Source: Mustelus asterias
Lineage: Eukaryota
DNA length: 64,000 nt
Assembly (NCBI RefSeq): GCF_964213995.1
Contig: NC_135818.1
Location: forward strand, 71,424,001-71,488,000
Direction of reading: 5' to 3'
Both the position numbers and the translations under genes were made by a program. The notes below the pieces were generated by a model. It was not told the DNA's origin. It worked only from the letters and a program-made list of their open reading frames with translations, and made no database searches. Below are positions 1,703 to 56,411 of this stretch, in pieces (within the stretch, counting starts at the first letter, position 1; every line of letters begins with the position of its first letter).

Positions 1703-3319
1703 AAAATATAACATTCACATTTGTCAATTTAATCTTATTCGGCAAGTTTGTTAATCTCTTAATTGGTTGCAATCCTCCTCAATTTCGAGTGTCACCCAGC
1801 AGTCTGGTGTGATGCACAAATTTAGGAAGTTAGATTGTCGCGTATCTCAAGTTTCTAGCCGGCCCAGCAGGGAAACGACCTTCTGTGATTGCTGGGGCCA
1901 CTGCACTGGTTTTGTCGACAGCAGCTGCATTCGACTCTGGCAAGAAGTATCTCTTAAATTTAAATAAAAAGTGTTTAATTAGCATATGGTTACCGGTCTA
2001 AGTGTTTCCTGTAGCTCCTCGAACTGGAATGAAGCCACATGTGGGATTACAAACACCCTGGTTGATTTTTGGAGGATTTTTCACGTGGCTGTTAAGTAAC
2101 TATCATGAGTTGAAAGTTGCTGCTCCCATTACCCTGTTGCTAATAAAAATTTAAAGTTTATTTACTAGCGTCACAAGTGGGCTTACTGCAATCGGCAGTG
2201 GTTTCATAGACTTTTAATTCAGGATTTTTAAAAATTCAATTCAAATTCCACCATCTGATTCGAAACCAGGTCCCCAGAGCATTAGCTCTGAGTTTCTGGG
2301 CCAGCATTTGAGTTGCCAACTTTGGCCAGAACTTTCCAGCCATTCACACCATCAGGATCTTCCAGTCCAGCCGACAGCGTATCCCCGCCGTGGGTTTCCC
2401 AGCGGTGAGGAGCGCATTCGATGGGAAACCTCATTGGCAATGGCAGAACCAGAGGAGTCTACAGCCAGCCAACGTGGTGGGTTGCATGGAAAATTCTGCC
2501 CTCTGGTTGGAAATATTCCTGCATGATCCATCCATCATATGACCAATTGCGTCCTTTCAATCCACTCCATCAAACAGCCATTCCTCTTCATCTCTAACGC
2601 TTCGATAATTGACATACAAAAGTATTCCAAGAAGACTAAACCCCCACCCTTTTCAATGTCCCCTGTGATATATTTCCTCCTGGATTGTTGGTATCAGTAG
2701 CCAGGAGCTTAATCTTTAATTCCTGGAGGTGCAAAGGCATGTTTGGACGATTGGCAGACCTCTTGAGCATTCATCGGACAAGATTCAAGTACCAGTTGAA
2801 GGGTCATCCAGACTTAAAACGTCGTTCCTATTCTCTCTCCATAGATGCTGTCAGGCCTGCTGAGGTTTTCCAGAATTTTCTGTGTTATGGTTCAAGCACC
2901 AGTCATGTCTCTTCAGGGAACTCGCCTGAATGAAGACTGCAATTTCAGATTTGTGCTTTGCTGGCCCTGTGTCTCTACTATATCCTTGGAGTGATGAGGT
3001 TGGAATGGCTACCTCTATGGGGAATGGGTGGATGGAGGGGGTGGCTGAGGGGTAGAAGGCCTTGATCACCATTCCATGAAGACGGTTCTTTTCATAAAAC
3101 ACAGGCCTGAAGTCACCAACCTCACGCATGGCTGGGATTCCCCAGTCCCGCTGCAGCGAATGAGTTTTGGACGAGTGCCAAATTCTCCGTTCTCGCTGGC
3201 AGCAATGGCGGGGTGAATGAGATCATTGAATTCCGGCCACAGTTACAACCACCAGAGATTTTGAAGAATTTTGAGTGTGTCACTGTTGACTAATGTTGGA
3301 TGGGACCCTTCAATAGGCA

Positions 3320-3551
3320 CTCTCGGCCTTTGAGCTAAGATCAAGCATTGGATCAAGCTCAAGATGGGGAGCAATTGCTTTTCTGGTCAATTTGGATTCT
3401 CTTTGTCTTTCTTGTGGGGACGATGAATTGGATTCAATTTGAATTTGGATTTTGGAGCAAGCAAGAAGGTGCATTTGGGTTTGCCCAGTCCACTCTGCGC
3501 ATTGGCTTTATAACTTCAAGAATGGAGTAAAAATAAAATTAAAAATTAAAA
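3320..3551 (+). mobile_element. U2 snRNA-derived retroposed element, copy 1
   Basis: 3321-3345 matches U2 nt 7-31 (23/25); Sm-site-like ATTTTGGAGCA; GTCCACTCTGCGCAT resembles U2 stem III/IV; A-rich tail; possible TSD TAGGCA (3314-3319 / 3554-3559). Confidence 0.8.
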
Positions 3552-3744
3552 CGTAGGCATTTGGCTCTCGATTTATATCTTTCATTGGCCTAATGCCTCA
3601 GTCCAGGATGCTTGAAAAAAGAAGTCCACAAGTTTGGTGGCAGGATCTATACCTGTATGAATTGGGCACAGTTTGCCCTAAAACTTAATTATGCCCAAGG
3701 AAAGGATGGAATTCTGTCTACTCCAGAATGATATCAGTGGTTTG

Positions 3745-4810
3745 CGTGAGTGGGCAAATGGAATTCAATCAGGAAAGGCGTGAGGTAGTGCATTTAGGGA
3801 GGGCAAACAAAGCAAAGGAATGCTCAATAAACGGGAAGATGTTGAGAGGGGTTGAGGAAGTGAATGAACTTGGAGTGCATGCCCACAGGTCCTTGAAGGT
3901 GGCAGGGCAGGTGGACAAGGTGGTCAAGAAAATATATGGGCTGCGATTTTCTGAGCATTCATGCCAGTGAGATTTTCCTGTCCTGCTGCAGTGAATGGAG
4001 ATTTGGCTTGTCTCCAAATTCGCCGTCTTCGCGGCAGCGGGACCGTGGGCGTGAACGGGCAGTAAGATTGCGTGCATGGCATGTTTTCCTCTTTTGGAAA
4101 TCTTCCGGCCGTTCACGCCAGTGGAATTTTCTGGTCCCGCTGCAGCAAGCTGAGATTTGGTCGAACGCCAAGATTTCCGACCTCGTTGGCAGTGGCGGCG
4201 GGGTGTGAATGGCCAGAAAATTCTGGCCATTGAATACAAAAGCAGAGATGTAATGACGGATCTGTATAAAACTCTGGTTGGACCACAGCTGGAATGTTGT
4301 GTATAGTTCTGGTCACTGCGTTACAGAGAGGTCATAATTGCTCTGGCGAGAGTGCAGAGGAGATGGATAAGACTTGCAAAATTGCAGCAATGGAGAGAGA
4401 TTGGATAGGCTGGGGTTGTTTTCCTCAGAGCAGAGGAGGCTAAGAGGCAAACAAATTGAGGTTGACTCATTGAAGGGCCCAGATAGGGTAGACAGGAAAA
4501 ACTTGTTCCCCCGAGCAGAGGGATCAATTACCAGGAGATACAGACTTAAGATGACTGGTGGAAGGGTGAGAGAGAAAACTTTGTCACCCAGAGGGTGGCG
4601 GGCATCTGGAAATCACTGCTTAAGTTGGTGGTTGAGGCAGAAACCCTCCAATCATTTAAAAGGTATCTAGATCTGCATCTGAAGTGCTGTAACCTGCAAG
4701 GTTACGGACCAGGTCCTGGAAAGTGGGATTAAAATGAATGTTTTTTTCCCCTCTTTTTTGGGCAGCACAGACACAATGGCCTGAATGGCCTCTTCCTGCA
4801 CTGTAACTTT
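3745..4810 (+). mobile_element. CR1 3' relic interrupted by a MITE (3938-4229)
   Basis: QMEFN..EVVHLGR, ELGVH, VVKK|..EYKSR, LGLFS.E.RRLRG motifs. Confidence 0.8.
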
Positions 4811-8820: not shown

Positions 8821-10085
8821 AATATGTTTGGGGAAACGCAATCCCCTCTGTGTTTCTTTAGGCTGCTGGGCGGAGTTGATTATTTTAGGATTAAGGAAAA
8901 GCTCATTTGGGCTGTCACACCCACAGCAAGGAACTCCTGATGGGGAACAGCCATTTAGTGTGTTTGTGGAGATGTATACATAATGCATAATAGAGGAACC
9001 ACGACAGCTGGTGGAAATTAAGTTCAATTAATTAATAATATAAAGTCTGGAATTGAGAGATCGTCTCAGGGGGGAATTCTCCCATCCTGGGACTAAGTCC
9101 CATGGCAGCATGGGAACATAGAGTGTTTCCCATTGCGGAGGCCAGCGGGGAAACATGCCAAATCTTCCACCTTCAACAATTTTAATCTTACATCTGGAGG
9201 TTTTGTGCTATATTTTCCATGCTGGGGCATGTCTGATAATGCCTAGTGCACAGTCCTACCAGGTGCCGTATTGAAAAGGCGCCCAACTTCAATGGCCCAC
9301 CCTTGAGGAGAAAAGCGGACCTCCTGATATTGAAGATGGATTTCGAGGAGCACGCTGAGGCCGGAAAATGGACCTCTGGAGAAAGAAGATGAACCGCCAG
9401 GAACATTCGGAGGCTGGAAGATGGACTCCCTCCAGGACGTCAAATTTGGTGATACTACACTCCCCCACCCCCCCACCCCACCCATCCACTGCTGTGGTGC
9501 TCTGGGGTCCAGGGTTGCGAGAGGCCTCCATCCTGATCTCTGGAGGCAGCCACAGACATTGTGCAGATGAGTCCTAACATCTCCACTCCAAGTTGCTCCA
9601 GATGTGTTTTGCACCAGCGCACTTTCCTGTTGACATGGCAGAGAATCAGACATGGGTCGTCAGCCTTCATTTGCACATCATTAGTGTGATGCAAATGAGT
9701 TGCATGCTGGCCTCCAATGGGATTCCCGATCCACCATGGGGGCATTTTCCGACATCGGGAAAAGATCCCGCAGGAAATTCACCGATTTTTGAGCCTCCTG
9801 CTGAATCCTGCTCCCCCCCCTCCCCCCCCCCCGCCCCGCCCCTCTGAATCCCCTCCATATTTAAATATGCAGTAGCCCATTGGAATCCCAACGCATGGAA
9901 TTCTCAGCCTTCGAGGACGGCGCAAGAACAACAAGAATCACAACTGGTCTCCTCTAGCGAAGAAAATGTCAGTAGGACGTACAAGACAGGACAAGAGGAA
10001 AACCCTGTGCCAAGCCATCTGCCCAGTCCAGTCTGTGGCTCAGGAGTGAACCTGTCAAGGAAGTATAGTAATAAATAGGTATAAC

Positions 10086-10299
10086 TCCCTATCGCTTCTC
10101 AACCTATTGGCTAAGATCAAGCCCAAGATGGGGTGCAATGACCTTTCTTGCCAGCTTGGATCTTGGCTGTCTTCCTTGTGGGGATTCAATTGGATTTTGA
10201 ATTTGTCTTTTGGAGCAAGCAAGGAATGGACTTGAGTTTTCCCTGTCGATTCTGAACACTTGTAAATTTAAGGATGGAGTTAAAAAAAAAATTAAAATG
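10086..10299 (+). mobile_element. U2 snRNA-derived retroposed element, copy 2
   Basis: ATCGCTTCTCAACCTATTGGCTAAGATCAAG at 10091-10121 = U2 5' end (28/31); poly-A tail; perfect 16-bp TSD AATAAATAGGTATAAC (10070-10085 / 10300-10315). Confidence 0.88.
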
Positions 10300-11516
10300 A
10301 ATAAATAGGTATAACACATACATATTTAGTATATTATACTTTTGCAATAAATCTTCAGAGGCAGAAGTCCCTTCACCAAAATCTCTTTATTTATAATTCC
10401 AACAGCAGTACACAGAGTGCGATCAGTCAGCAGTCTACCTTCAGGAGTGCCAGAGGAACTGACACTCCAGTTAAATACAAGAAAAAGACTCCCTGATTGA
10501 CCCATCAATTGACTCCTTAATCAGGGAGTTCATATTCAATAGGCCAACCTCAATGGCCTGATTGAAGTTATTAGAACTTTTGAACGGAGGAAGTGGACAC
10601 ATATAAACTGAACTATTTTTACCCAGAAGCGTTATAGTGTACACATGGCCTGAACTTGCTCACAGATTTGGTTTCAACAGGTATTAAACAGACCTTATCT
10701 GTGCCACACATAAAGTAACAACAGAGAGGGCCTTTCAAGCTTTTTCCCCACTAAGCAAAGATAAGAAAAAACTTTAAAGTCATTTCCAAAGGAACTTTAA
10801 AAGCATTTATGATGGTATTGTCTCTCCTTATTTATTCAGGAGTAATTTTTAAGTTTTACCTCAGCAAATTAGAAAAACAGAATTTAAAAATTAATTCTTC
10901 TATAAAAAGTTTGAAATCACTTCTTTAGAAATTTAAAAAAATTGGAGATAAACAGGAAAGAAATTAAGGGTGTATTTCAGAACATGACCACATACTGGCT
11001 CACAGTGTGAATAATAAAACAATTTTAACAAATAAATAACAGAGAATAATAAGGACACATATAAGGGGAAGACTTAATCAAATAGGTAGTGCCCATTGCT
11101 GCTAAAGAATTATGTAGGGTGGGATGTTATGGCCTTGCTCAACCCAAGACCGGAAAATCCCGCCCGAGGTCAATGGACCTTCCCATTGTCCGCCTGTCAC
11201 CCGCTCCAATTCCCACGGCGGGCAGGGCGGTAGAAATCCAGCGGTAATCTGGTTTAGGAAGGTATAACTGTTCCAGTTTCCTTTCAGGACATCAGAGACA
11301 CTGTAAAAAAGCACTGGGAGGACCCCTTCCAATGTTTCCCCAGTTGTCGAGGAGTTGGATATTGTAAAACAAATAGCCTTTCTCTCCAACTTCCCCGTCT
11401 ACTGATTCACTTGGGATTCATGTCAAGCATTACTTTGAATATTGATGGGTGTTCTTAAATTGACGTGCATTGTATTTTTAAAGTTTTATTAGATTCTATA
11501 TTAGAACTAAGACTAT

Positions 11517-11676: not shown

Positions 11677-12037
11677 AATGCCTCTCATCCATTGACTCTG
11701 TCTACACTTCCCGCTGCCTCGGCAAAGCAGCCAGCATAATTAAGGACCCCACGCACCCCGGACATTCTCTCTTCCACCTTCTTTCTTTGGGAAAAAGATA
11801 CAAAAGTCTGAGGTCACATACCAACGGACTCAAGAACAGCTTCTTCCCTGCTGCTGTCAGACATTTGAATTGACTTAAGGTGATCTTTCTCTACACCCTA
11901 GCTATGACTATAACACTACATTCTGCACTCTCTCGTTTTCTTCTCTGTGAACGGTATGTTTTGTCTGTATAGCGCGCAACAAACAATACTTTTCACTGTA
12001 TGTGAATACATGTGACAATAATAAATCAAATCAAATC
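11677..12037 (+). mobile_element. Rex1/Babar-like LINE 3' fragment
   Basis: KAASIIKDPTHPGH..GKRYKSL..RLKNSFFP; tail TGTGACAATAATAAA(TCAAA)n. Confidence 0.85.
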
Positions 12038-12734
12038 CACTTTAAAGGGTCTTGCATGTTAAATAGTTCTGTAATAAATTTGTAAATAAGTTGGTAAAGC
12101 TTAATATCTTTTGTGGTCTTTTGCAAGCAGTAGAAGAATCCACCTCTCTTGTCCTTTCTGTCAGTGTAAAGATTCAATTTATGAAAAGAAACGCCCGGTT
12201 CCTTATAATATCCAGGTAGTTATGACATGGCCAACAATTTATTTAGCAGGCTGTTTGGGAAAAGGTAATATCTCTTAATAGTTTCCTTTGGGGAAGATGT
12301 GGTTCACTTTCTCACACCCAAAATAAGTGTCTGTGTGAAGTGGCTGCTTTGGACTAAGGTGAGGGTGATTGTTGAGAGAGTGCTGCCAATCTCATATAGT
12401 CTATACTTGAAGCCAGAGTTATTATCCACTCCAGAGCAACTGCGTTGTGAGAAAAATCAAAAGTGATGTCTCAAGAAAACGGATAGTTAGTTGCTTGGTG
12501 ATTTTGTTTTTCAAAACTTGGGTAATTATAATAATTGGGAGGTTTTATTAGTAATAGATGGTTGATGAATAGTTGTTAAGTTTAATAGATTGGCTGGTGA
12601 ATAGTTCGTATTTATATTTACGAGGGAACTTCAATTGAGGTAAGTAGAACATTTATTGAAATAATGAGAATATAAGCACAGGCAGGGTTAGAGACATCAA
12701 TTGATAAAAATGACTAAAAAAATTATTTAAATGT

Positions 12735-13593: not shown

Positions 13594-14200
13594 CAAGTTT
13601 TTAGGTGTCCAGATCACCAACAACCTGTCCTGGTCCCCCCATGCCGACACTATAGTTAACCCACCAATGCCTCTACTTTCTCAGAAGACTGAGGAAGTTT
13701 GGCATGTTAGCTATGACTCTCACCAAATTTTACTGATGCACCATAGGAAGCATCCTTTCTGGTTGTATTACAGCTTGGTATGGCTCCTGCTCTGCCCAAG
13801 ACCGCAATAAACTACAAAAGGTCGTGAATGTAGCCCAATCCATCACACAAACCAGCCTCCAATCCATTGACTCTGTCTACACTTCCCGCTGCCTCAGCAA
13901 AGCAGCCAGCATAATTAAGGACCCCATGCACTCCGGACATTCTCTCTTCCACCTTCTTCCTTCGGGAAAAAGATACAAAAGTCTGAGATCACGTACCAAC
14001 CGACTCAAGAACAGCTTCTTCCCTGCTGCTGTCAGACTTTTGAATGGACTTACCTTGCATTAAGTTGATCTTTCTCTACCTATGAGCCGAGCTATGACTG
14101 TAACACTCTCTCGTTTCCTTCTCTATGAACTGTGTCTGTATAGCGCGCAAGAAACAATATTTTTAATACATGTGACAATAATAAATCAAATCAAATCAAA
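13594..14200 (+). mobile_element. Rex1/Babar-like LINE 3' fragment
   Basis: KFLGVQITNNLSW, YFLRRLRKFG, SFFPAAVRLLN; (TCAAA)n tail. Confidence 0.88.
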
Positions 14201-14403
14201 ACATTTTCAAAGGCTTCATTTCTGGTGTTTGCTGAAATAAAGGCCTTTTATTCCTCTTGTGACTCTTCAACTCCCCCAGGTAGAACTCTTGAGCAAGTGG
14301 TTCCACCGTATTTAATAATATGCCATTAGGTCATTCACGCACTATTTCTTAACTGAGAGCTCTTGAGATAATTACATTCTGAATTCAGTTTAAAAAATTG
14401 TCA

Positions 14404-15879: not shown

Positions 15880-17232
15880 ATTCTAGCCAATTTACTTTCA
15901 TAATCCATTTTCTCTGTCTTTTATCAGTTTCTTGGCTCTCCCCTTGCTGAATTCTAAAATGCTCTCAATTCTCAGGCTTACTACATTTTTTAGGCAACTT
16001 AATAGGCCTCTTCCTTTGATCTAATGCCATCCTTAACTTCACTTGTTCGCCATGGTTGGATTGCTTTTCCTTCTGGGGTTTTGTACCTCAAAGGAATGTA
16101 AGTTTGTTGTAGATCATGTAATAATTCATGAAGTGCTAGCCATTGTCTGTCTACTGTCATACCATTTAATGTAACTTCCCAACACACCACAGCCAATTTG
16201 ACCCTCTTACCTTCGTAATTTCCTTTGCTTAGATTACAGTCTCCCGGTTTGGGATTGCATGACATCACTTATTATAAAATCCCATCATATTATGGTCATT
16301 AAAGTCTCCTTTACAACAAGATTATTAATTAGCTCTTTCTCATTGCACAATATTAGATCTAACGTAGCCTGTTCTCTAGTTGGTTCCTCAACAGACTGTT
16401 CTAGAAAACCACATTGTAAACATTCCAGGAATTTGTCCGCCACAGGTTAGGACAAATTCCAAATGTAGGTTTCCCCAGTTCATATTTAGATTGAAGTCCC
16501 CAGTGATCACTATACGCATTACCCTCTAATATCCTAATTTACACAATTGCCACCGATCTTTGGTGGCCTATAAACAACCCGTGCCAATGTTTGCTGCCCT
16601 CTGCTGTTTCTTAACTCCACCCAAACTGTTTTGACACCTTGATCTTCTGATCTAAGGTCCTTAGATCAGAAGAAGGCGGCACGGTAGCACAGTGGTTAGC
16701 ACTGCTGTTTCACAGCTCCAGGGACCTGGGTTCGATTCCCGGCTTGGGTCACTGTCTGTGTGGAGTTTGCACATTCTCTTCGTGTCTGCGTGGGTTTCCT
16801 CCGGGTGCTCCGGTTTCCTCCCACAGTCCAAAGATGTGCGGGTTAGGTTGATTGGCCATGGTAAAATTGCCCCTTAGTGTCCTGGGATGCGTAGATTAGA
16901 GGGATTAGCGGGTAAAATATGTAGGGATATGGGGGTAGGGCCTGGGTGGGATTGTGGTCGGTGCAGACTTGATGGGCCGAATGGCCTCTTTCTGTACTGC
17001 AGGGTTTCTATGATTTCTCACGACTGTACTGATCATATCCTTTATTAGCAGCACTACCCCTTCTTATTTTGCCTATTCTTCTCAATGCTGAATGCTCCTG
17101 AATATTCAGTCCCAAGTCTTGAATACCCCACAACCATGACTCTGTAACGGCAATCAGTATAGATCTGCTTCCTTTTACTTATGCTGCCAATTCACCGAGC
17201 TTGTTGTGAATAATCCATGCACTCACATAGAG
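15880..17232 (-). mobile_element. Old CR1 ORF2 (endonuclease region) relic split by a SINE
   Basis: GDFNL, LEQ.VEEPTREQA.LDL, PW.T.EVKD.IRSKEEAY motifs. Confidence 0.75.
16675..17017 (+). mobile_element. HE1-type V-SINE inserted in a CR1 relic
   Basis: Full head GGCGGCACGGTAGCACAGTGG through the GGTTTCTATGA tail. Confidence 0.9.
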
Positions 17233-19471: not shown

Positions 19472-19702
19472 TATTAGTCTGTCAGTGCTTTAGGCTGAAT
19501 TTGTCTGAATTATCTGTCAACTTCAACCTGCCACAGGAGTTTGGATTTTTAAAAATTAATTTGTGGGACATGGGTGTCGCTGGGTGGGCAGCATTTATTG
19601 CCCATCCCTAGTTGCCCTTGTCCAGAGGGCAGTTGAGAGTCAACCACATTGTTGTTGGTCTGGAGTCACATGGAAATAAAAATACTATCAATAAAAGTCA
19701 TA

Positions 19703-23834: not shown

Positions 23835-24128
23835 GCAGTAGTGTAGTGGTATTGTCACTGGACTAGTAATCCAGAGATAAAAAACATCTGGAATTAAGAA
23901 TTTAGTGATGACCATGAAACTCCTGTCGATTGTCGGAAAAATCTATCTGGTTCACTAATATCCTTTAGGGAAGGAAATCTGTCATCCTTATCTGGTCTGG
24001 CCTATATGTGACTCCAAACCCACAACAGTGTGATTGACTCGCAACTACCCTCCAAGGGCAAGTTGGGATGGGCAATAAATGCTGACCAGCCAACGACGCC
24101 CATGTCCTACAAATGAATTTTTAAAAAA
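23835..24128 (+). mobile_element. Second tRNA-derived SINE family (GGGCAATAAATGCTGG...ATGAAT tail)
   Basis: A-box TAGTGTAGTGGTA, body GGAAGGAAATCTG..CCTGGTCTGGCCTAC, LINE-like tail; repeated elsewhere in the window. Confidence 0.75.
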
Positions 24129-24323
24129 GCAAAATACTGCGGACGGCGGAATCGGAAACAAAAACAGAAAATGCTGGAAAAGCTCAGCAGGTCTGACAGC
24201 ATTTGTGGAGCGAGAATAGAGGCAACATTGTGAGTCTGGATGACCCTTCAGACTCGCAACATGGGCTCTATTCTCTCTCCACAGATTCTGTCAGACCTGC
24301 TGAGATTTTCCAGCATTTTCTGT
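24129..24323. mobile_element. Second Penelope-like palindromic terminal-repeat family
   Basis: CAGAAAATGCTGGAAA..CTCAGCAGGTCTGACAG arm and its inverted copy; related single arms at about 2798-2883 and 27551-27631. Confidence 0.65.
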
Positions 24324-24329
24324 TGTAGT

Positions 24330-24715
24330 ACTCCAGCGACCCAGGATAATGCTCTGGGGACCCAGGTTTGAATCCCACCACGCCAGATGGTGGAATTTGA
24401 AATCAGTAAAATAATCTAGAAATATAAGTCTAATGATGACCATTTTAGATTGTTGGATAAACCCATCTGATTCACTGATGTCCTTGAGAGAAGGAAATCT
24501 TTTGTCCTTACCTGGTCTGGCCTACACGTGACACCAAATCCACAACAATGTGGTTGACTCTCAACTGTCCTCAGGCAACTAAGGATGGGCAATAAATGCT
24601 GGCCAGTCAGCAACGCCCATGTCCCACAAATGGATAAAACTACTCGATTTCAAATGCCCTCAGGCACAAATGCCCTCAGCCAGCGACACCCGCATCCCAT
24701 GAACAATTTTTAAAA
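24330..24715 (+). mobile_element. Second tRNA-derived SINE family copy with duplicated tail
   Basis: B-box GGTTTGAATCC, same body and tail. Confidence 0.75.
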
Positions 24716-25013
24716 CAACTTTCTCTACTGATACAAATAAATAACGGAGATAGCCAGTTAACCCTCCAATTCCCTAAGCAACTGTTCTCTGATGACACAT
24801 CTTGTTGTTGCAGCAGGCTAGCTAAAGAAAGAACTCCTCACCATCACAATGGTATTTCTTTCACCCAAAATTGAGTGAGGCATTGAGCTTGCTCTGGGGG
24901 CTACGACCGTACAAATGCTGAATGCATTTGCCCAAAAGTGTTCCTTCTGCTACTGCAGCAAAGGACTTCAAAAATTGACGGGTAGAAGCCTCAGCTAGAT
25001 TAGCGGACAATAT

Positions 25014-25367
25014 TTGATTTGATTTGATTTATTATTGTCACATGTATTGGCATACAGTGAAAAGTATTGTTTCTTGCGTGCTATACAGACAAAGCATATC
25101 GTACAAAAGGAAGGAAAGGAGAGAGTGCAGAATGTAGTGTTACAGTCATAGCTAGGGTGTAGAGAAAGATCAACTTAATATAAGGTAGGTCCATTCAAAA
25201 ATCTGATGGCAGCAGGGAAGAAGCTGCTCTTGAGTCGGTTGGTATGTGACCTCAGAATTTTGTATCTTTTTCCCGATGGAAGAAAGTGAAAGAGGGTATG
25301 TCCAGGGTGCTTAATTATGCTGGCTGCTTTTCCGAGACAGCAGGAAGTGTAGACAGAGTCAATGGAT
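25014..25367 (-). mobile_element. Rex1/Babar-like LINE 3' fragment
   Basis: Same C-terminal motifs and (ATTTG)n tail. Confidence 0.85.
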
Positions 25368-25723
25368 GTGTCATTAGTCAAACTAATTGTTCAGCACGCA
25401 AGTCTCATCCCACAGCATCATTCCAAGGCTCAGAATTGATTAAAAATGGATTGCTTTTGAACCATTAATACAGCTAATTTCAAAATAAATGCGTGTAAAA
25501 CAGCTTGATACTGGCAAAGGTAATATTGGATTTGTTGTTTTGTTTGCCAATCAAGGTTTTCGTCCAGATGCTGGAGGGTAAATTTCTAGTTTGGCAGGTG
25601 TAACGTAAAGAATCTAATGGTTATGGAATAGCCAAAGCAGATGCTAATTCCCCTAAACATCTTTCTCCCTTATTGAACCTTACATTTTCACTGTCCTTTG
25701 TGTTGGATCTCTTCAGTGCTCAC

Positions 25724-28780: not shown

Positions 28781-29357
28781 TTGATTTACTTGTTTTGTAT
28801 CAAAGAATATAATAATCAAATAATTTTACACCAATTAACAATCTAAAATATGCATCAACATTGCCTGCACACTGTTTGATGGTCACTTACTCTGCATGAA
28901 CCAAGAATGTTATATTTTTGTTTGGCTGCACAACCATCCCAGATCGATGGTGAACAAAGAAAAAGCAATGCCCAGAAGGATGTTTTGTTCCTCTGCAAAA
29001 TCTTACTGCCAAATTTTATTTAAAGAACGAGATGTACTTGAACCAGCAGGACCTTTTGTATCCGACTCTTTGCAAATACCACAACACAGTCATTCTGTTC
29101 TTGATGTATCACAGCTTGGAATGGCTCCTGCTGTGATCAAGACTGCAAGAAACTACAAAGGGTTGTGAACATAGCCCAGTCCATCAGGCAAAGCAGCCCC
29201 CCATCCATTGACTCCATTTACACTTCCCGCTGCCTCAGAAAAGCAGCCAGCATAATCAAGGACCCCACGCACCCCGGACACACTCTCTTCCACATTCTTC
29301 TGTCGGGAAAAAGTTACAAAAGTCTGAGGTCATGTACCAACCGACTCAAGAACAGGT

Positions 29358-31029: not shown

Positions 31030-31557
31030 ATTTGATTTGATTTGATTTATTATTGTCACCATGTCCAGTGAAAAGTATTGTTGCTTGTGCGCTATATGAA
31101 CATAAGAACATAAGCACTAGGAGCAGGAGTAGGCCATCTGGCCCCTCAAGCCTGCTCCGCCATTCAATAAGATCATGGCTGATCTTTTTGTGGACTCAGC
31201 TCCACTTACCCGCCCGCTCAGGTCTGGCTATACAGACAAAGCATACCATTCATAGAGAAGGAAATGAGAGAATGCAAAATGTAGTGTTACAGTCATAGCC
31301 ATAGTGTAGAGAAAGATCAACTTAATGCAAGGTAGGTCCATTCAAAAGTCTGACGGCAGCAGGGAAGAAGCTGTTCTTGAGTTGGTTGGTACGTGACCTT
31401 AGACTTTTGTATGTTTTTCCCGACAGAAGGAGGTGGAAGAGAGAATGTCCAGGGTGCGTGGGGTCCTTAATTATGTTGGCTGCTTTGCCGAGACAGTGGG
31501 AAGTGTAGACAGAGTCAATGGATGGGAAGCTGGTTTGCGTGATGGATTGGGCTACAT
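31030..31557 (-). mobile_element. Rex1/Babar-like 3' fragment containing a CR1 tail (31097-31222)
   Basis: Same motifs; (ATTTG)n tail. Confidence 0.82.
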
Positions 31558-32959: not shown

Positions 32960-33698
32960 CAAAGAACAAAGAACAAAGAACAGTACAGCACAGGAAACAG
33001 GCCCTTCGGCCCTCCAAGCCTGTGCCGCTCCTTGGTCCAACTAGACCAATCGTTTGTATCCCTCCATTCCCAGGCTGCTCATGTGACTATCCAGGTAAGT
33101 CTTAAACGATGTCAGCGTGCCTGCCTCCACCACCCTACTTGGCAGCGCATTCCAGGCCCCCACCACCCTCTGTGTAAAAAACATCCCTCTGATATCTGAG
33201 TTATACTTCGCCCCTCTCACCTTGAGCCCGTGACCCCTCGTGATCGTCACCTCCGACCTGGGAAAAAGCTTCCCACCGTTCACCCTATCTATACCCTTCA
33301 TAATCTTGTACACCTCTATTAGATCTCCCCTCATTCTCCGTCTTTCCAGGGAGAACAACCCCAGTTTACCCAAGTTCTCCTCATAGCTAAGACCCTCCAT
33401 ACCAGGCAACATCCTGGTAAACCTTCTCTGCACTCTCTCTAACGCCTCCACGTCCTTCTGGTAGTGCGGCGACCAGAACTGGACGCAGTACTCCAAATGT
33501 GGCCTAACCAGCGTTCTATACAGCTGCATCATCAGACTCCAGCTTTTATACTCTATACCCCATCCTATAAAGGCAAGCATACCATATGCCTTCTTCACCC
33601 ACCTTCTCCACCTGTGTTGCCACCTTCAAGGATTTGTGGACTTGCACACCTAGGTCCCTCTGTGTTTCTATACTCCTGATGACTCTGCCATTTATTGT
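32960..33698 (-). mobile_element. 5'-truncated CR1 (ORF2 C-terminus, ORF 33041-33598)
   Basis: LYRTLVRPHLEYCVQFWSP, LERVQRRFTRM, TRGH; (TTCTTTG)n tail. Confidence 0.92.
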
Positions 33699-33792
33699 AT
33701 ATACATTACCACAGCGCTCAGAGTCCACACAGTTCTCAGTACATACCTTCAATTGCTCATTGATCCTGAGCAAGCACTGTGTAGAAATAATC

Positions 33793-33998: not shown

Positions 33999-34102
33999 TA
34001 TAAATGGATTTCTGTTTCCACAAAGATTTTACCAATGCTCCGACTGAAGGTTCTAGTCTTGACCTGAAGTACTCAGCTGAAAGTGCTGTGCCCAAATTGG
34101 AG

Positions 34103-34458
34103 AGAAGAGATGGCCTTGTGGTATTATCACTAAACTATCAATCCAGAAACTCTGCTAATGTTCTGGGGATTTGGGTTCGAATCACTGCCATGGCAGATGG
34201 TGGAATTTGAATTCAATAAAAAAAAAATCTGGAATTAAGAGTCTCCTGATTCCATTGTCGATTGCTGGAAAAACCCATCTGGTTCATTGATGTCCTTTCG
34301 GGAAGGAAATCTGCCATCTTTACCTGGTCTGGTCTATATATGACTCCATAGCCACAGTAACATTGTTGACTCTCAACTGCCCTCTGAACAAGGGCAAGCT
34401 AAGGATGGGCAATAAATGCTGGTCCAGCCAGCATGTCCCATGAATGAATATTTTAAAA
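34103..34458 (+). mobile_element. Second tRNA-derived SINE family, full length
   Basis: TGGCCTTGTGGTA A-box, GGTTCGAATC B-box, same body and tail. Confidence 0.8.
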
Positions 34459-37807: not shown

Positions 37808-38008
37808 ATTGTTTCATGGGATGTGGGTGGCACCGGCTGGGTCAGCATTTCTTGCCCATTCCTAGTTGCCCTTGAACTGAGTGGCTTGTTCAGCCACTTT
37901 AGAGGGCAATTAAGAGTCAACCACATCGTCTGTGGGTCTGGAGTCACATGTAGGCCAGACCAGGTAAGGATGGCAGATTTCCTTCCTTAAAGGACATCAG
38001 TGATTCAG
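37808..38008 (-). mobile_element. Second SINE family, 3' fragment
   Basis: Reverse complement of body and tail; another fragment at about 19550-19670. Confidence 0.7.
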
Positions 38009-43174: not shown

Positions 43175-44030
43175 TAAGTAAAAGAAGCCAAATACTATTC
43201 CATAATAGTTGCTACAATATCAGATGTGAGTCATGTGGACCAATGAACATTAACTTTAAGACCAGCGATAGTGAAGTTGTAGAGCAATTTCTTTGTTACT
43301 TTGATTTCTCAGCTACAGCTCCATGCATCTGAGTGTCTGGAGACAACTGTTTTGGAAATCATTGTAAATTCAGGTTTGGACTCAGAAATTTGGACAGAGC
43401 TTGAATAATGCTGCAAATATGGCAGGAAAATATTCAGGTCTACAAGCAAGATTGAATAATGCAAGCTCCTATGCATTCTTCATCCCCTGTTCCATTCCCT
43501 GACTGAATTTAATTTGCAATGCTGCAGCTAAACCCTGTGAGATATCTGGACATTCTTTTGACTTTATTCAAAACTTGCGTGCCTTCTTTTTCGGTTTCCA
43601 TGCATCGGTGGGATATATTGCAACCACACTTGGAGCAAGCAAATGAAAACATTTGATGGTCAACAAAATATATGGTCCACTTGTGCAGATGCTGTCTTGG
43701 CTTTGAAAATGACTTTTGCTGATATAAAGGAAACCTTATCAGACATATCCGCATCAAATTCAGAAAATCCACATGTGAAAACTGAAGCAAAATCCTTAGC
43801 AGAGACGTTTCAAAAGTATGATATTGCTGTTTTTACTGTTTTGTGGAACTATTTACTTCAGAGTATTCATGCCATCAACAAATTGCTGCAAAATGCTGAT
43901 GCAACTTTATTGAATGCTGTGCAATTGTTAGCCTCAGCCCAAAGTATTGTCATGGAAGTTCAAGATGACTCTATCTCGGTGGAAGTAGAGGCGCTAACAT
44001 TAACAAAATATACAGGTCCCTCTGATAATG
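43175..44030 (+). pseudogene. hAT transposase relic, catalytic core part (ZMYM1/Tip100-like)
   Basis: Translates to VKEAKYYSII..SDVSHVDQ*, NAANMAGKYSGLQARL, FIPC, then the 43643 ORF (W..LL..I..INK.LQ); stops and frameshifts present. Confidence 0.85.
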
Positions 44031-44109
44031 AGAACCATAGAACCATAGAAAATTACAGCTCAGAAACAGGCCTTTTGGCCCTTCTTGTCTGTGCCGAACC
44101 ATTTTATGC

Positions 44110-47025
44110 CTAGTCCCACTGACCTGCACTTGGACCATATCCCTCCACACCCCTCTCATCCATGAACGCGTCCAAGTTTTTCTTAAATGTTAAAAGTGCA
44201 TTTACCACTTTATCTGGCAGCTCATTCCACACTCCCACCACTCTCTGCGTGAAGAAGCCCCCCCTAATATTCCCTTTAAACTTTTCTCCTTTCACCCTTA
44301 ACCCATGCCCTCTGGTTTTTTTCTCCCCTAGCCTCAGTGGAAAAAGCCTGCTTGCATTCACTCTATCTATACCCATCAAAATCTTATACACCTCTATCAA
44401 ATCTCCCCTCAATCTTCTACGCTCCAGGGAATAAAGTCCCAACCTATTCAATCTCTCTCTGTAACTCAGCTTCTCAAGTCCTGGCAACATCCTTGTGAAC
44501 CTTCTCTGCACTCTTTCAATCTTATTTACATCCTTCCTGTAACTAGGTGACCAAAACTGTACACAATACTCCAAATTCGGCCTCACCAATGCCTTATATA
44601 ACCTTACCATAACACTCCAACTTTTATACTCGATACTCCGATTTATAAAGGCCAATGTACCAAAGGCACTCTTTACGACCCTATCCACCTGTGACGTCAC
44701 TTTTAGGGAATTCTGTACCTGTATTCCCAGATCCCTCTGTTCAACTGCACTCTTCAGAGTCCTACCATTTACCCTGTACGTTCTACTTTGATTTGTCCTT
44801 CCAAAGTGCAATATCTCACACTTGTCTGCGTTAAATTCCATTTGCCATTTTTCAGCCCATTTTTCTAGTTGGTCCAAATCCCTCTGCAAGCTTTGAAAAC
44901 CTTTCTCACTGTCCACTACACCTCCAATCTTTGTATCATCAGCAAACTTGCTGATCCAATTGACCACATTATCATCCAGATCATTGATATAGATGACAAA
45001 CAACAATGGACCCAACACCGATCCCTGCGGCACACCACTAGTCACAGGCCTCCACTCAGAGAAGCAATACTCCACAACCACTCTCTGGCTTCTTCCATTG
45101 AGCCAGTGTCTTATCCAATTTACTACCTCCCCATGTATACCTAGCGACTGAACCTTCCTAACTAACCTCCCATGAGGGACCTTGTCAAAGGCCTTGCTGA
45201 AATCCAGGTAGACAACATCCACCGCCTTCCCTTCATCCACTTTCCTGGTAACCTCCTCGAAAAACTCTAATAGATTGGTCAAACATGACCTACCACGCAC
45301 AAAGCCATGTTGACTCTCCCTAATAAGTCCCTGTCTATCCAAATATTTGTAGATTCTATCCCTTACCACACCTTCCAATAACTTGCCCACCACCGACGTC
45401 AAACTTACTGGCCGATAATTTCCCGGATTTCTTTTGGAACCTTTTTTAAACAACGGAACAACATGAGCCACCCTCCAATCATCCGGCACCTCCCCCGTGA
45501 ATACTGACATTTTAAATATGTCTGCCAGGGCCCCTGCAAGTTCAACACTAGCTTCCCTCAAGGTCCGTGGGAATACCCTGTCCGGTCCTGGGGATTCATC
45601 CACTCTGATTTGCCTCAAGACAGCGAGCACCTCCTCCCCTTTAATCTGTAAAGGTTCCATGGCCTCCCTACCAGTTTGCCCTATTTCCGTAGACTCCATG
45701 CCCGTTTCCTCAGTAAATACGGATGCAAATAAACCATTTAGTATCTCCCCCATCTCTTTTGGTTCCATACACAGTCTACCACTCTGGTCTTCAAGAGGAC
45801 CAATTTTATCCCTCACTATCCTTTTGCTCCTAACATACCTATAGAAGCTCTTTGGATTTTCCTTCACTCTGTCTGCCAAAGCAACCTCATGTCTTCTTTT
45901 AGCCCTCCTGATTTCCCTCTTAAGGAGCTTCTTGCACTTTTTATACTCCTCGAGCATCTGATGTGTTCCTTGCTGCCTGTACATTTCATACAACTCTCTC
46001 TTCCTCTTAATCAGTGTTACAATCTCCCTCAAGAACCAAGGTTCCTTATTCCTATTTACTTTGCCTTTAATCCTGACAGGAACATACAAACTCTGCACTC
46101 TCAAAATTTCTCCTTTGAAGGCCTCCCACTTTCCATTTACATCCTTACCAGAGAACAGCCTGTGCCAATCCACACTTCCCAGATCCCTTCTCATTTCATC
46201 AAATTTGGCCTTTTTCCAGTTCAGAACTTCAACCCGAGGACCAGATCTATCCTTATCCACGATCAGGTTGAAACTAATGGCATTATGATCACTGGATCCA
46301 AAGTGTTCCCTCACACTCACATCCATCACCTGCCCTAACTCATTTCCCAATAGGAGATCCAATATCGCATCCTCTCTAGTTGGCACCTCTATATACTGAT
46401 GTAGGAAATTCTCCTGAACACATTTTACAAACTCTACCCCGTCTAAACCTTTAACAGTATGCGAGTCCCAATCTATATGTGGAAAATTAAAATCCCCTAC
46501 TATCACAACTTTGTGTTTCTTGCAGTTGTCAGCTATCTCTCCGCTGATTTGCTCCTCCAATTCTCGCTGACTATTGGGTGGTCTATAATACAAGCCCATT
46601 AATGTGGTCATACCTTTCCTGTTTCTCAGCTCCACCCATAGGGCCTCTGTAGACAAGCTCCCTAATCTATCCTGCCTGAGTACCGCTGTAACATTTTCCC
46701 TGACCAACAATGCCACCCCCCCACCTTTTATCCCTCTGCCTCTATCCCGCCTGAAACATTGGAACTCTGGAACATTGAGCTGACAGTCCTGCCCCTCCTG
46801 TAGCCAAGTTTCACTAATGGCTATAATGTCATATTTCCATGTGTCTATCCACGCCTTCAGCTCATCTGCCTTCCCCACAATACTCCTGGCATTGAAATAG
46901 ACACACCTCAAAAAATTATTTCCACCACACTCTACCCTTCCATTTGTGATTTTGCTTGAACTAACCTGTCTTTTTACCCCTGCTCCACTATCTGCTCTGG
47001 CACTCTGGTTCCCACCCCCCTGCAA
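44110..47025 (-). CDS. CR1 ORF2: apurinic-like endonuclease + reverse transcriptase (971 codons; no AUG start, ORF track begins at TTG)
   Basis: EN motifs YFNARS, ISETW, YRPP, GDFN, LDLLL, SDH; RT motifs PGPD, NYRPVSLTS, QHGF, YLDFSKAFDKV, GVPQGSVLGPLLF, FADD; CR1 C-terminal TRGH and FFTQRVV..WN.LP. Confidence 0.95.
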   Translation of the reverse strand: MQGGGNQSARADSGAGVKRQVSSSKITNGRVECGGNNFLRCVYFNARSIVGKADELKAWIDTWKYDIIAISETWLQEGQDCQLNVPEFQCFRRDRGRGIKGGGVALLVRENVTAVLRQDRLGSLSTEALWVELRNRKGMTTLMGLYYRPPNSQRELEEQISGEIADNCKKHKVVIVGDFNFPHIDWDSHTVKGLDGVEFVKCVQENFLHQYIEVPTREDAILDLLLGNELGQVMDVSVREHFGSSDHNAISFNLIVDKDRSGPRVEVLNWKKAKFDEMRRDLGSVDWHRLFSGKDVNGKWEAFKGEILRVQSLYVPVRIKGKVNRNKEPWFLREIVTLIKRKRELYEMYRQQGTHQMLEEYKKCKKLLKREIRRAKRRHEVALADRVKENPKSFYRYVRSKRIVRDKIGPLEDQSGRLCMEPKEMGEILNGLFASVFTEETGMESTEIGQTGREAMEPLQIKGEEVLAVLRQIRVDESPGPDRVFPRTLREASVELAGALADIFKMSVFTGEVPDDWRVAHVVPLFKKGSKRNPGNYRPVSLTSVVGKLLEGVVRDRIYKYLDRQGLIRESQHGFVRGRSCLTNLLEFFEEVTRKVDEGKAVDVVYLDFSKAFDKVPHGRLVRKVQSLGIHGEVVNWIRHWLNGRSQRVVVEYCFSEWRPVTSGVPQGSVLGPLLFVIYINDLDDNVVNWISKFADDTKIGGVVDSEKGFQSLQRDLDQLEKWAEKWQMEFNADKCEILHFGRTNQSRTYRVNGRTLKSAVEQRDLGIQVQNSLKVTSQVDRVVKSAFGTLAFINRSIEYKSWSVMVRLYKALVRPNLEYCVQFWSPSYRKDVNKIERVQRRFTRMLPGLEKLSYRERLNRLGLYSLERRRLRGDLIEVYKILMGIDRVNASRLFPLRLGEKKTRGHGLRVKGEKFKGNIRGGFFTQRVVGVWNELPDKVVNALLTFKKNLDAFMDERGVEGYGPSAGQWD

Positions 47026-47027
47026 AT

Positions 47028-47969
47028 CTAGTTTAAACGCTCCCCAATAACACTAGCAAATCTCCCTGCAAGTATATTGGTCCCCTTGTAGTTTAGGTGT
47101 AACCCGTCTCTCTTGTACAGGTCGCACCTGCCCCAAAAGAGGTCCCAATGATCCAAGAATTGGAAACCCTGCCCCCTGCACCAGTTCCTCAGCCATGTGT
47201 TTATCCGCCCAAGCATCCTACTCCTGCCCTCATTGGCATGTGGCTCAGGTAGCAATCCTGAGATTACTACCCTCGGGATCCTGCTTTTTAACTTCCTTCC
47301 AAGCTCTTTGTACTCACTCTTTAGGACCTCCTCACTCTTCCTTCCCACGTCATTGGTACCGACGTGTACCACGACATCTGGCTGATCACCTTCCCACTTT
47401 AGAACGCTGTGCACGCGATCAGAGACATCGCTGACCTTGGCACCTGGGAGGCAACAAACCATGCGGGAGTCTCTGTCCCGACCACAGAACCTCCGATCTG
47501 TACCTCTGACCATTGAGTCCCCTATCACTACTGCTCTCCTCTTCTTCATCCCACCCTTTTGCGCTGTAGAACCAGACGCAGTATCAGAGTTCCGGCTGTC
47601 GCAGCTTGTCCCAGGTAAAGCATCTCCCACAACAGTATCCAATTCAGTATACCTGTTGTGGAGGGGTATGGCCACAGGGGAACCCTGCTCTGCCTGTCCT
47701 TTCACACTGCCATTTCCTCTCCTTACAGTAACCCAATTTCCTGTGCTCTGCTGCTTAGGTGTAACTATCTCCCTAAAGCTACTGTCTATAAACTTCTCAT
47801 TCTCCCGAATTAGATGGAGGTCATCAAGCTCCTTCTCCAGTTCCCTAACACGCTTTGCTAGCAGCTGCAGCTGAATGCATCTTTTGCAGGTGCTGTCGTC
47901 AGGGATACCGGAGGTCTCCCTGATCTCCCACATCCTGCAAGAGGAGCATTCCAACATCCTGCCTGGCAT
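47028..47969 (-). CDS. CR1 ORF1 (313 aa from ATG 47969): CxxC...CxxC zinc finger/coiled coil + SGNH esterase-like domain
   Basis: CSSC...CKRC followed by the heptad-rich LQLLAKRVRELEKEL; SGNH blocks GDS, PGA, HVGTND, DGLH typical of CR1 ORF1 esterases. Confidence 0.92.
   Translation of the reverse strand: MPGRMLECSSCRMWEIRETSGIPDDSTCKRCIQLQLLAKRVRELEKELDDLHLIRENEKFIDSSFREIVTPKQQSTGNWVTVRRGNGSVKGQAEQGSPVAIPLHNRYTELDTVVGDALPGTSCDSRNSDTASGSTAQKGGMKKRRAVVIGDSMVRGTDRRFCGRDRDSRMVCCLPGAKVSDVSDRVHSVLKWEGDQPDVVVHVGTNDVGRKSEEVLKSEYKELGRKLKSRIPRVVISGLLPEPHANEGRSRMLGRINTWLRNWCRGQGFQFLDHWDLFWGRCDLYKRDGLHLNYKGTNILAGRFASVIGERLN
47031..47037 (-). other. Candidate -1 ribosomal frameshift slippery site U_UUA_AAC
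   Basis: Minus strand reads CGT TTA AAC TAG (end of ORF1); the -1 frame TTT AAA CTA GAT TTG CAG runs straight into ORF2. Confidence 0.7.
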
Positions 47970-48299
47970 TTTTTTTAGTCTGGGGAAAAACAAGAATAAA
48001 CTTTCTGGGAAAGAAAAAACTTACTCTCGCCTCTGCCTGTTCTCGCCGAAGCCCGTTTTGAGCCTAGGCCCTTCAGCTCTCACTCTGCCCCCTGCTCACT
48101 CTGCTGCCCGCTAACGACGCTGCCCGCTCAAAGGTGCGGCCTACTTTTAAACCCTCCAAAACCTTCCCAGGCTGCTGCTGGGCCTACTTCCTGTTTTGAA
48201 AAAAAAACCTCCGATTTTTTTCACTAATTTAACTGAAAAATAAACAAATAAATAAAATGCACAAACAGCTCCCTTACCCTCAGCCTGCTCCTGTGGAAC

Positions 48300-50279: not shown

Positions 50280-50622
50280 CATAGAATCATAGAAACCCTA
50301 CAGTGCAGAAAGAGGCCATTCAGCCCGAGTCTGCACCGACCACAATCCCACCCAGGCCCTATCCCCTTATCCCTCCACATTTATACACTAATCCCTCTAA
50401 CCTACGCATCTCAGGACACTAAGGGGCAATTTTAGCATGGCCAATCAGCCAAACCCGCACATCTTTGGACTGTGGGAGGAAACTGGAGCACCCGGAGGAA
50501 ACTCACGCAGACACGAGGAGAATGTGCAAACTCCACACAGACAGTGACCCAAGCCGGGAATCGATCCCAGGTCCCTGGAGCTGTGAAGCAGCAGTGCTAA
50601 CCACTATGCTACCGTGCCGCCC
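50280..50622 (-). mobile_element. HE1-type V-SINE, CR1-type tail
   Basis: Full-length, young-looking copy. Confidence 0.9.
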
Positions 50623-54635: not shown

Positions 54636-54944
54636 ATTCTGGGGGCTCAGTTCATTCTGGCCCGGTGAAAACAACACTACCCAGACCATTCATGGAGGAT
54701 TGGGTGGTGCAATGGACACTGATCTTGTCTCTGCTTCGGTGTATGCATACCTCAGCTACCATACCATGCTTTCGAGGCTTTTGTTCTTGTGGCTGAGCCT
54801 TAGTGAGGTTTCACTAATACCGTGCTCTCTTGGTTTACCAATCCTTAATGAGGCTTTGCTCCCTTTGGACACTCGTAAGAAAGTTGGTGTGGTTTAACTT
54901 CAAACATTTTATTGTGAACTGTTGTAAAGACATCATGGTAATCA

Positions 54945-55175
54945 GGCCTTTTGTCTGAGATCATGCGTAGTAGGATCAAGCATAAGATCAGGTGTAATAC
55001 CTGTTCTTGTCAAGCTTGGATCCAGTGTGTCTCTTTTGTGGGAGCCATGAACTGGATTCATGTTTGAAATTGAATTGGTTTTTGGAGCAGGCAAGGAGAT
55101 GGATTAAGGGCTTACCTTGTCCATTTCGTGCATTGGCTTTGTAACTCTGAGAGAGGAATGAATTTTTTTCAAAAA
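54945..55175 (+). mobile_element. U2 snRNA-derived retroposed element, copy 3
   Basis: GGCCTTTTGTCTGAGATCATGCGTAGTA head, duplicated TAAGATCAGGTGTAATACCTGTTCTTGTCA, then GTTTTTGGAGCAGG..GGAGATGGATTAAGGGCTT..GTCCA; 15-bp TSD with 2 mismatches (54932-54946 / 55175-55189). Confidence 0.82.
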
Positions 55176-55315
55176 TCATAATAATCAGGGGATGGACCGT
55201 TCTGCTCCCAGCTTCCTTAGAGCCTCTTGGTCATCTGACAACTGATGTCATGGTTACATCATCAATCTAATCATGGTCTCATTAACATATTCATTAACCC
55301 AATACTCGCTGTGAC

Positions 55316-55643
55316 CTTTTTTTTATTCATTCATGGAACATGGGCGTCGCTGGCTGGCCAGCAGTTATTACCCATCCCTAGTTGCTCATAGATCAACCAC
55401 ATTGCGGTGGCTCTGGAGTCAGATGTAGGCCAGACCAGGTAAGGACGGCAGATTTCCTTCCCTAAAGGCAGTAGTGAACTAGATGGGTTTTTCCGACAAT
55501 GGTTTCATGGGCCATCAGTAGATTCTTAATTCCAGATTTTTAAAAATATACTGTGACGGGAATCGAACCTGCATCCCCAGAACATTCGCTGAGTATTTGG
55601 ATTAATAGTCTCGCGATAATACCACTAGGCCATCGTCTCCCCA
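55316..55643 (-). mobile_element. Second tRNA-derived SINE family, full length
   Basis: Reverse complement; poly-T at 55317-55324 is the A-tail. Confidence 0.8.
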
Positions 55644-56129: not shown

Positions 56130-56411
56130 TGGGTGGCTGCGTGAAGTTTGCACGTTGTCCCTGCGTCTGCGTGGGTTTCCTCCAGGTGCTCCGGTTTCCT
56201 CCCACACTCCAAAGATGTGAATGTTGGGTGGATTGGCCTTGCTAAATTGCCCCTTAGCGTCCCAAGTTGCACAGGTTAGGGGGATTAGTGGGGTAATGCA
56301 TGGGGTTACGGGGATAGGGCAGGGGGTGGGCCTGGTTAGGATGCTCTTTAGGAGAGTTGGTGCAGCCTCGAGTGTACTCCTTCTGCACTGTAGGGATCCT
56401 ATGATTCTATG
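56130..56411 (+). mobile_element. 5'-truncated HE1-type V-SINE
   Basis: V-domain and (ATTCTATG) tail. Confidence 0.85.

Follow-up and report, generated by a model that had tools for sequence, protein, structure and literature searches.

Three stretches resembling U2 small nuclear RNA (snRNA) lie within 64 kb of a shark genome, which raises the question of whether they are independent retrocopies of a spliceosomal RNA or members of a retroposon family. They occur in a 64,000-nucleotide (nt) stretch of Mustelus asterias DNA (contig NC_135818.1, positions 71,424,001 to 71,488,000; hereafter referred to as the window), in which an earlier reading made from the letters alone (the sequence-only reading) had proposed a U2-derived family. 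Our analysis suggests that they probably belong to an old, non-autonomous retroposon family that consists almost wholly of U2 snRNA, resembles the SINEU short interspersed elements (SINEs) and arose independently in an elasmobranch.

All three elements lie on the forward strand, and they measure 234, 214 and 228–230 base pairs (bp). Copy 1 spans positions 3320–3553, copy 2 spans 10086–10299 and copy 3 spans 54947–55174, with a head that is counted from 54945 and overlaps the last two bases of the left target-site duplication (TSD). When the whole window was compared with all 4,227 Rfam families, U2 was matched at exactly these three places, and the elements gave no U1 match. There is no fourth copy in the 64 kb, as the next match in an nhmmer search with the --max option had E = 1 and a covariance-model (CM) search returned three matches. 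The U2 scores are 27.5, 24.6 and 28.3 bits for copies 1, 2 and 3 (the gathering cut-off of Rfam RF00004 (U2) being 46 bits), with E-values of 0.0011 (copy 1) and 0.0058 (copy 2) in 501-bp searches, 0.0011 for the body of copy 3, and 0.09–0.74 in the whole-window search. The alignment to Rfam U2 covers model positions 1–192 in all three copies, with the stem IIa/IIb stretch partly unaligned; the positions and this alignment bear out the claim of three U2-colinear elements of about 215–230 bp. The longest open frame in the elements has 69 codons, and alignment of the three antisense frames to protein sets matched 0 of 296 candidates and 0 of 1.84 billion.

The copies are closely related to one another. 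BLASTN between them gives 72–75% identity over 135–202 bp (E from 8e-11 to 8e-30), and in leave-one-out nhmmer searches a profile of two copies finds the third with E-values of 6.9e-45, 2.7e-30 and 3.2e-34. Body identities are 79% (132/168) for copies 1 and 2 and 73% (132/180) and 70% (117/168) for the other pairs. When their heads are removed, the body of copy 1 scores 12.7 bits against Rfam U2 (E = 1.6), that of copy 2 has no match at E ≤ 10, and that of copy 3, the most U2-like, scores 25.9 bits.

The heads and their duplicates were counted by eye against the Rfam consensus, which is pan-eukaryotic and may differ from the U2 of the species itself. Only copy 2 has the whole U2 5′ head (10091–10121), which comprises U2 nt 1–31 and matches the consensus at 27 of 31 positions. 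The sequence-only reading had stem I kept throughout, at 28/31 in copy 2, a figure that we take to refer to vertebrate U2; the head is indeed retained, at the lower count and, as a whole, in this copy only. Between the TSD and U2 nt 1 of copy 2 lie five extra bases (10086–10090), either untemplated or upstream sequence, which, if common to other full-length copies, would mark the upstream sequence of the master. In this copy nt 1–31 runs straight into nt 21, which could reflect a deletion between repeats or a new head acquired from U2 RNA. Its body (10122–10282) thus restarts at about nt 21 and runs through a diverged branch-point region, a duplicated pre-Sm segment, an Sm-like U-run (10208–10211), a GCAA duplication, a stem III remnant and a loop IV deletion. 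The head of copy 3 (54945–54972) comprises U2 nt 11–38 (24/28), stops at nt 38 and gives no Rfam match alone. It is followed by a body (54973–55174) with an extra GATCAAG, U2 from about nt 20 (23/26 over nt 21–46), duplications, an Sm-like T5, stem III and a loop IV deletion. Copy 1 has the layout of copy 3 with the nt 32–38 part decayed: a head of U2 nt 7–31 (23/25), two GATCAAGC units at 3339 and 3351, a body to about 3530 and an A-rich tail to 3553. Copies 1 and 3 are 5′-truncated, beginning at U2 nt 6–7 and nt 11, respectively.

Several departures from U2 are common to all three copies. CM alignments place a gap in loop IV (8, 7 and 5 + 1 nt in copies 1, 2 and 3) and an insertion directly after the Sm site (3, 2 and 5 nt) in each of them. 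The segment before the Sm site is duplicated in all three, most clearly in copy 1, and what had been described as an inserted segment, although correctly recognized as shared, is better read as a tandem duplication. Furthermore, A30G and G36A are invariant in the three bodies, both at positions shown as conserved in the Rfam consensus; G36 lies within the branch-point pairing motif GUAGUA, which is intact only in the head unit of copy 3. Loop IV of U2 binds U2B″/A′, and GUAGUA pairs with the branch point. The loop IV deletion and the A30G and G36A changes had been overlooked. Two other proposed family traits hold in part: the reiterated GATCAAG is shared by copies 1 and 3, copy 2 having only the nt 21–31 duplication, and the Sm-site-like U-run is present, with the A that precedes it kept only in copy 1.

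Since these shared changes are absent from the U2 model, the master from which the copies derive was non-canonical, and a common one is supported because the bodies of copies 1 and 2 share 79% identity and yet match Rfam U2 so poorly. We let copies decay independently in 100,000 simulated runs for each of three indel loads (4, 6 or 10 per copy); at least three shared indels arose in 0, 1 and 87 runs, respectively. Comparison of the copies thereby supports their descent from one non-canonical master and not from independent retrocopying of U2, as had been proposed: the body identities, the diagnostic indels found in 3/3 copies in the alignment and the simulations agree on this point. In Kojima's papers, a shared internal rearrangement is the criterion that separates a SINE from retrocopies (PMC4494074, PMC7245038). 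A working variant U2 gene behind the copies is disfavoured. A working spliceosomal RNA is unlikely because loop IV is lost and the branch-point region altered, and the copies lack what would mark a functional U2, with 24.6–28.3 bits against 46, loop IV gapped in 3/3, and A30G and G36A in the body.

The master may have changed over time. Five sites within nt 21–46 of the body have the consensus base in copy 3 and a shared non-consensus base in copies 1 and 2 (by eye), and the other two pairings of copies have no such shared derived sites, so at least two masters in succession are suggested, with copies 1 and 2 as an apparently more derived subgroup than copy 3. In copies 1 and 2 together, the head is U2-like at 50/56 positions (~89%) and the internal duplicate at 32/52 (62%), a difference with a Fisher p of 0.0013, based on counts by eye against the pan-eukaryotic consensus and overstated, as related copies are treated as independent. 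This contrast suggests that the head was kept or renewed while the body drifted.

The ends of the elements carry marks of retroposition. Copy 2 is flanked by a perfect 16-bp TSD (10070–10085 and 10300–10315, forward strand) that was equalled by 4 of 1,500 random position pairs; its target site, T/AATAAA, is L1-endonuclease-like, and its A-rich tail occupies 10283–10299. The 15-bp TSD of copy 3 (54932–54946 and 55175–55189, forward strand) has two mismatches and was equalled by 64 of 1,500 random pairs and by 23 of 3,000 in a narrower search. A possible 6-bp TSD of copy 1 (3314–3319, repeated at 3554–3559, forward strand) is at chance level when unconstrained (0.80, 0.28) and has a chance of 0.008 if it is to abut both ends. 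Copies 1 and 2 have A-rich tails, and that of copy 3 is short and T-interrupted (T7-C-A4). The proposed A-rich tails and TSDs can thus be confirmed, the TSDs being good in copies 2 and 3 and weak in copy 1. A tail templated from the AAAATTAAAA pattern of copies 1 and 2 was considered and dropped, as T-interrupted A-tails also occur in another family of the window. The empty sites of the three copies are unrelated (6/6 comparisons at background), and therefore the copies are separate insertions and not segmental duplications, with no common target evident; a shared target sequence was rejected on the same comparisons. None of the three sites (n = 3) lies inside a repeat detected in the window, a test blind to any repeat with no other copy in the window.

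These marks bear on the long interspersed element (LINE) that mobilized the family. L1-mobilized inserts have TSDs of about 15 bp (PMC2912911), and the TSD reported for SINEU-3 is 16 bp (PMC4494074); SINEU as a class is attributed to a Tx1-clade LINE. From the 15–16 bp TSDs and the exclusion of a CR1 3′ end, an L1/Tx1-type LINE is the likely partner. The 3′ ends of the three copies have no similarity to CR1, with scores of 18, 25 and 18 against a shuffled mean of 19 (p = 0.62, 0.06 and 0.74). By contrast, a 330-bp tRNA-like SINE in the window, which we take to be HE1-like, has a 3′ end that scores 53 against the CR1 of the window, a value reached by 0 of 300 shuffles; the U2-derived elements have no 3′ similarity to this SINE either. 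A flanking repeat scoring at least 9 was present in 2/3 U2-derived elements and in 0/14 full-length copies of the 330-bp SINE, the ends of which were taken from BLAST and may be slightly off. The contrast drawn earlier with a CR1-driven SINE is upheld on both counts.

How the master was transcribed can be approached from the copies. T-runs of at least four lie inside all three, and no copy has a pair of A-like and B-like RNA polymerase III (Pol III) boxes, copies 1 and 2 each containing a single, unpaired match (the motifs being those we presume for these boxes). A TSD lies at most 5 bp from the 5′ end of each copy, so none of the three is the source gene and none has native upstream DNA; five octamer matches occur in the window, none of them 220 bp upstream of a copy. 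We infer that an unseen master was transcribed by RNA polymerase II (Pol II) from an external U2-type promoter. For SINEU, transcription was described as an open question, the U1 and U2 promoters lying outside the RNA (PMC4494074), and was still undemonstrated in 2018 (PMC5786205). The first U2 unit of copy 3 ends at nt 38, one junction in one copy, which is the insertion point of the Keno and Utopia elements, where U2 from nt 39 lies directly 3′ of the element (PMC4640811). Template switching onto the 5′ end of U2, as in SINEU heads, would also account for this junction. A bolder scenario, which we regard as doubtful, is promoter piracy: a copy would land in, or recombine with, a real U2 gene at nt 38/39 and thereby gain a Pol II promoter and a fresh head, the family would be tens of thousands strong, and its RNA would keep the Sm site and stem III as a small nuclear ribonucleoprotein while dropping the splicing parts.

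Predicted folding differs among the copies. Copy 3 folds better than 200/200 shuffles (z = −3.8), the fold of copy 1 is marginal (z = −1.8; 10/200 shuffles) and that of copy 2 is weak (z = −1.0; 29/200). Base pairs form in 89.5% of the cells of stems IIb and III, the helices having been predicted from these same sequences.

Together, these observations are best accommodated by the SINEU-like retroposon family that we consider probable. A U2 gene or retrocopy would have gained the internal duplications and the loop IV deletion, the shared changes that we observe, and would have ceased to act as a splicing RNA. Its transcription would have continued, with Pol II acting at an external U2-type promoter as the most likely route, in an element that sat in a real U2 gene or was re-headed by one, as suggested by the near-intact head, the nt 38 junction, the internal T-runs and the missing A and B box pair. 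The A-tailed RNA may then have been reverse-transcribed in trans by an L1/Tx1-type LINE, yielding 15–16 bp TSDs and 5′ truncations, with at least two successive masters, probably the copy 3 type first and the copy 1/2 type later, given the five shared derived sites. The three copies in the window are promoterless and decayed.

Several points weigh against this reading. The sample is three copies only, and the U2 scores of all three are under the Rfam cut-off. Covariation in stems IIb and III is not above shuffles (206/500), so no selection on structure is evident, and the head contrast, overstated as noted, is missing from copy 3 (24/28 in the head versus 23/26 in the body). The TSD of copy 1 is weak, and a T/AAAA-like target site is present in 1/3 copies, copy 2 only. 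No L1/Tx1 element was found in the window, the reverse transcriptase (RT) remnants detected being matches to CR1 ORF2, with none assigned to L1/Tx1, and neither a source locus nor a transcript was found in the window data. Copy 3 terminates in bases that look like the 3′ end of a different SINE family present in the window (the second SINE family), which we take to be Deu/SacSINE1-like; a chimera with that family was rejected, as 9/9 comparisons were at background. Finally, in searches outside the window the family motif had 0 matches in bacterial assembly contigs, plasmids gave none and phages one chance match (E = 0.8); these searches covered no shark genomes and say nothing of them, and we count the blanks on the same side.

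The same copies could instead be retropseudogenes whose parents were a single variant U2 gene or a few such genes, with their own promoter, possibly functional and abundantly expressed in the germ line; the copies would then never have been sources, and the result would be a pseudogene family and not a SINE. We regard this as rather unlikely. It would fit an element that spans U2 nearly end to end without a LINE-derived tail, keeps an Sm-like run and stem III and, in copy 3, folds better than every shuffle, and Kojima does not call full-length A-tailed 7SL copies SINEs without proof of a copy as source (PMC7245038). Against it, every copy has damage in both loop IV and the region that pairs with the branch point, copies 1 and 2 fold weakly, two master types are implied, and three copies in 64 kb would call for thousands across the genome unless the copies cluster. 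It is very improbable, and largely refuted, that the copies are ordinary U2 retropseudogenes formed independently or that a single old pseudogene was duplicated locally. A-tailed, TSD-flanked U2 retrocopies are known (PMC4494074), and all three elements lie on one strand within 52 kb, for which the chance is 0.25 and for which Pfam scans of the window frames found no host gene as an explanation. Their shared indels and substitutions are nonetheless hard to reconcile with such origins, as the copies are far closer to each other than to the U2 model, their TSDs differ and their flanks are unrelated.

The family might also be as we propose, with an L2/CR1-group LINE as the mobilizer or with mixed partners, which we consider improbable. 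Copy 3 ends in GAATGAAT followed by a T-run and an A-run, a pattern that occurs twice in the window, the other occurrence being at the 3′ end of the second SINE family. A chondrichthyan SINE of the general type of that family has been reported to use L2 (PMC5499810), and CR1 and L2 are described as the prevalent LINEs of the elephant shark (PMC5381603). However, the end motif of copy 3 is partly the 3′ end of U2 itself, TSDs of 15–16 bp are absent at 14/14 CR1-type SINE copies, visual inspection of the second family's two full-length copies showed none, and the U2-derived elements have no whole-element similarity to that family.

Comparison with known systems places the proposed SINEU-like family more precisely. 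Its copies have these features of the SINEU class: a U2-derived 5′ region, a length below 500 bp, no coding capacity, dispersal, a 3′ A-tail, a shared rearrangement and oligo-T without a Pol III promoter. By the published descriptions, the element works like SINEU, is most like SINEU-3 and lies outside the crocodilian families. SINEU-3 is likewise short, U2-derived and A-tailed, with a shared rearrangement, a head of about 32 nt of U2, a 16-bp TSD, internal oligo-T and no known promoter (PMC4494074). By contrast, SINEU-3 has an internal deletion of about 50 bp and a non-U2 3′ end of about 40 nt, whereas the shark element is lengthened by duplications and is U2 to its 3′ end; of about 1,600 SINEU-3 copies, 313/347 near-full-length ones flank Mariner-N4_AMi, whereas the shark element has no shared target at its three sites. 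SINEU-1 and SINEU-2 resemble it in that 5′ pieces of snRNA were added repeatedly to the head and partly duplicated there, but they contain U1 pieces or a long 3′ part that is not snRNA, where the shark element has no U1 match. Keno (Tx1 clade) and Utopia differ in being protein-coding, autonomous LINEs that target U2 genes, with variable 5′ junctions (PMC4640811). U2 and tailless retropseudogenes (PMC5322556, PMC2912911) share the placement of U2 between TSDs and the L1-type machinery, but are described as copying the canonical RNA singly and as mostly 3′-truncated and tailless, whereas the shark elements are 3′-complete and tailed and share non-canonical changes. The HE1/HER1 SINE–LINE pair of sharks and rays (PMC3747384) combines a tRNA head with a CR1-derived 3′ tail, and the U2 elements have neither.

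The HE1-like SINE of the window, from the same genome, has no long TSDs and is of similar or slightly younger age. Its pairwise identity has a median of 82% (14 copies), so the U2 elements are as old or older. In the literature searched, mostly without subscription papers and Repbase Reports, we came across no description of a shark or ray SINE derived from an snRNA; Kojima found no SINEU outside crocodilians in 2015 (PMC4494074). An existing Repbase or Dfam entry for the family is quite possible. Two stingray annotations list 656 and 690 splicing snRNA matches (PMC12946260, PMC10787021), counts that are uninformative here, as the elements fall below the cut-off. Extrapolation of three copies per 64 kb gives 1.4e5 in 3 Gb (95% interval, 2.9e4–4.1e5), which is biased upward, as the window was picked for the element. 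With 1,000 random copies in 4 Gb, the Poisson probability of three in a window of this size is 7e-7 (~0.04 such windows per genome), and with 5,000 copies it is 8e-5 (~5 windows per genome); therefore, thousands of copies are likely unless they are clustered. SINEU as a class numbers hundreds to thousands of copies per genome.

The window is rich in other repeats. An apparently intact CR1 LINE at 44030–48100 (reverse strand), likely to be young, has both frames open: ORF1, of 330 amino acids, encodes a GDSL/SGNH esterase, and ORF2, of 980 amino acids, an endonuclease and an RT. The best animal-named matches of ORF1 are from sharks and rays (Hemitrygon, Mobula, Leucoraja, Hypanus, Pristiophorus, Mustelus and Stegostoma; up to 63%), with 33–41% to coelacanth, frog and turtles and a 98% match to a Mustelus asterias protein over 13% of the query. 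These matches give good support to an elasmobranch host, likely a shark. The named matches of ORF2 are birds and turtles (41–49%) and one bacterial-named record (62%); proteins named Carnobacterium maltaromaticum and Pseudomonas aeruginosa, on contigs of 3–4 kb, match ORF2 and ORF1 at 62% and are probably animal DNA in bacterial records. A 183-codon open frame at 43562–44113 (forward strand), which runs into the CR1 3′ end and has a weak Pfam match to the RTEL1 ARCH domain only, is by eye presumably a hAT-type transposase fragment. Older RT/endonuclease remnants (CR1 ORF2, 27–66%) lie at 3755–4729 (forward), 61703–62476 (reverse), 33056–33701 (reverse), 16002–16632 (reverse) and 63670–63996 (forward), the first of them 200 bp downstream of copy 1 and split by an insert resembling a miniature inverted-repeat transposable element (MITE). 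The 330-bp SINE, whose 3′ end is shared with CR1, is present in 23 pieces longer than 150 bp (for example, 1379–1698, 16675–17015 and 50285–50621), of which the copies at 16675, 50285, 29359 and 54302 form a closer group (88–92%); its motif had 0 matches in bacterial assembly contigs. Members of the second SINE family lie at 34097–34458, 55324–55644 (reverse), 24347–24639, 23879–24126, 19547–19671 (reverse) and 37835–38003 (reverse), and 3/6 of those shown end in a T-run and then an A-run, one matching the end motif of copy 3. Six LINE-like 3′ fragments, 78–88% identical (11680–12044, 13662–14203, 25012–25368, 29098–29355, 31227–31557 and 58961–59538), are presumably Rex1-like. Long inverted repeats with sub-threshold matches to Rfam microRNA families (61333–61508, 24161–24323, 2797–2886 and 56377–56531) are probably MITE-like or SINE-pair hairpins. 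No host gene was evident, with no convincing Pfam match in 148 short frames (two weak DUF matches below the cut-off) or in 18/20 long frames, a scan that excluded about 90 further frames of 55–65 codons and all shorter exons, and ARAGORN found no tRNA.

In the literature searched, snRNA-headed SINEs have so far been reported only from crocodilians, and a family of separate origin in elasmobranchs would demonstrate that SINE-like families can be founded repeatedly by Pol II snRNAs. If the local density were typical, the shark family would far outnumber SINEU-3, and, as its copies score below the Rfam cut-off, routine annotation would not count it. The intact head, the drifting body and the nt 38 junction offer a concrete test, a source copy inside a U2 gene, and promoter piracy, if true, would make this the second time that snRNA SINEs arose independently and the first case in which their route of transcription could be traced. 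Furthermore, the presence or absence of such TSD-flanked insertions could serve as phylogenetic markers in sharks.

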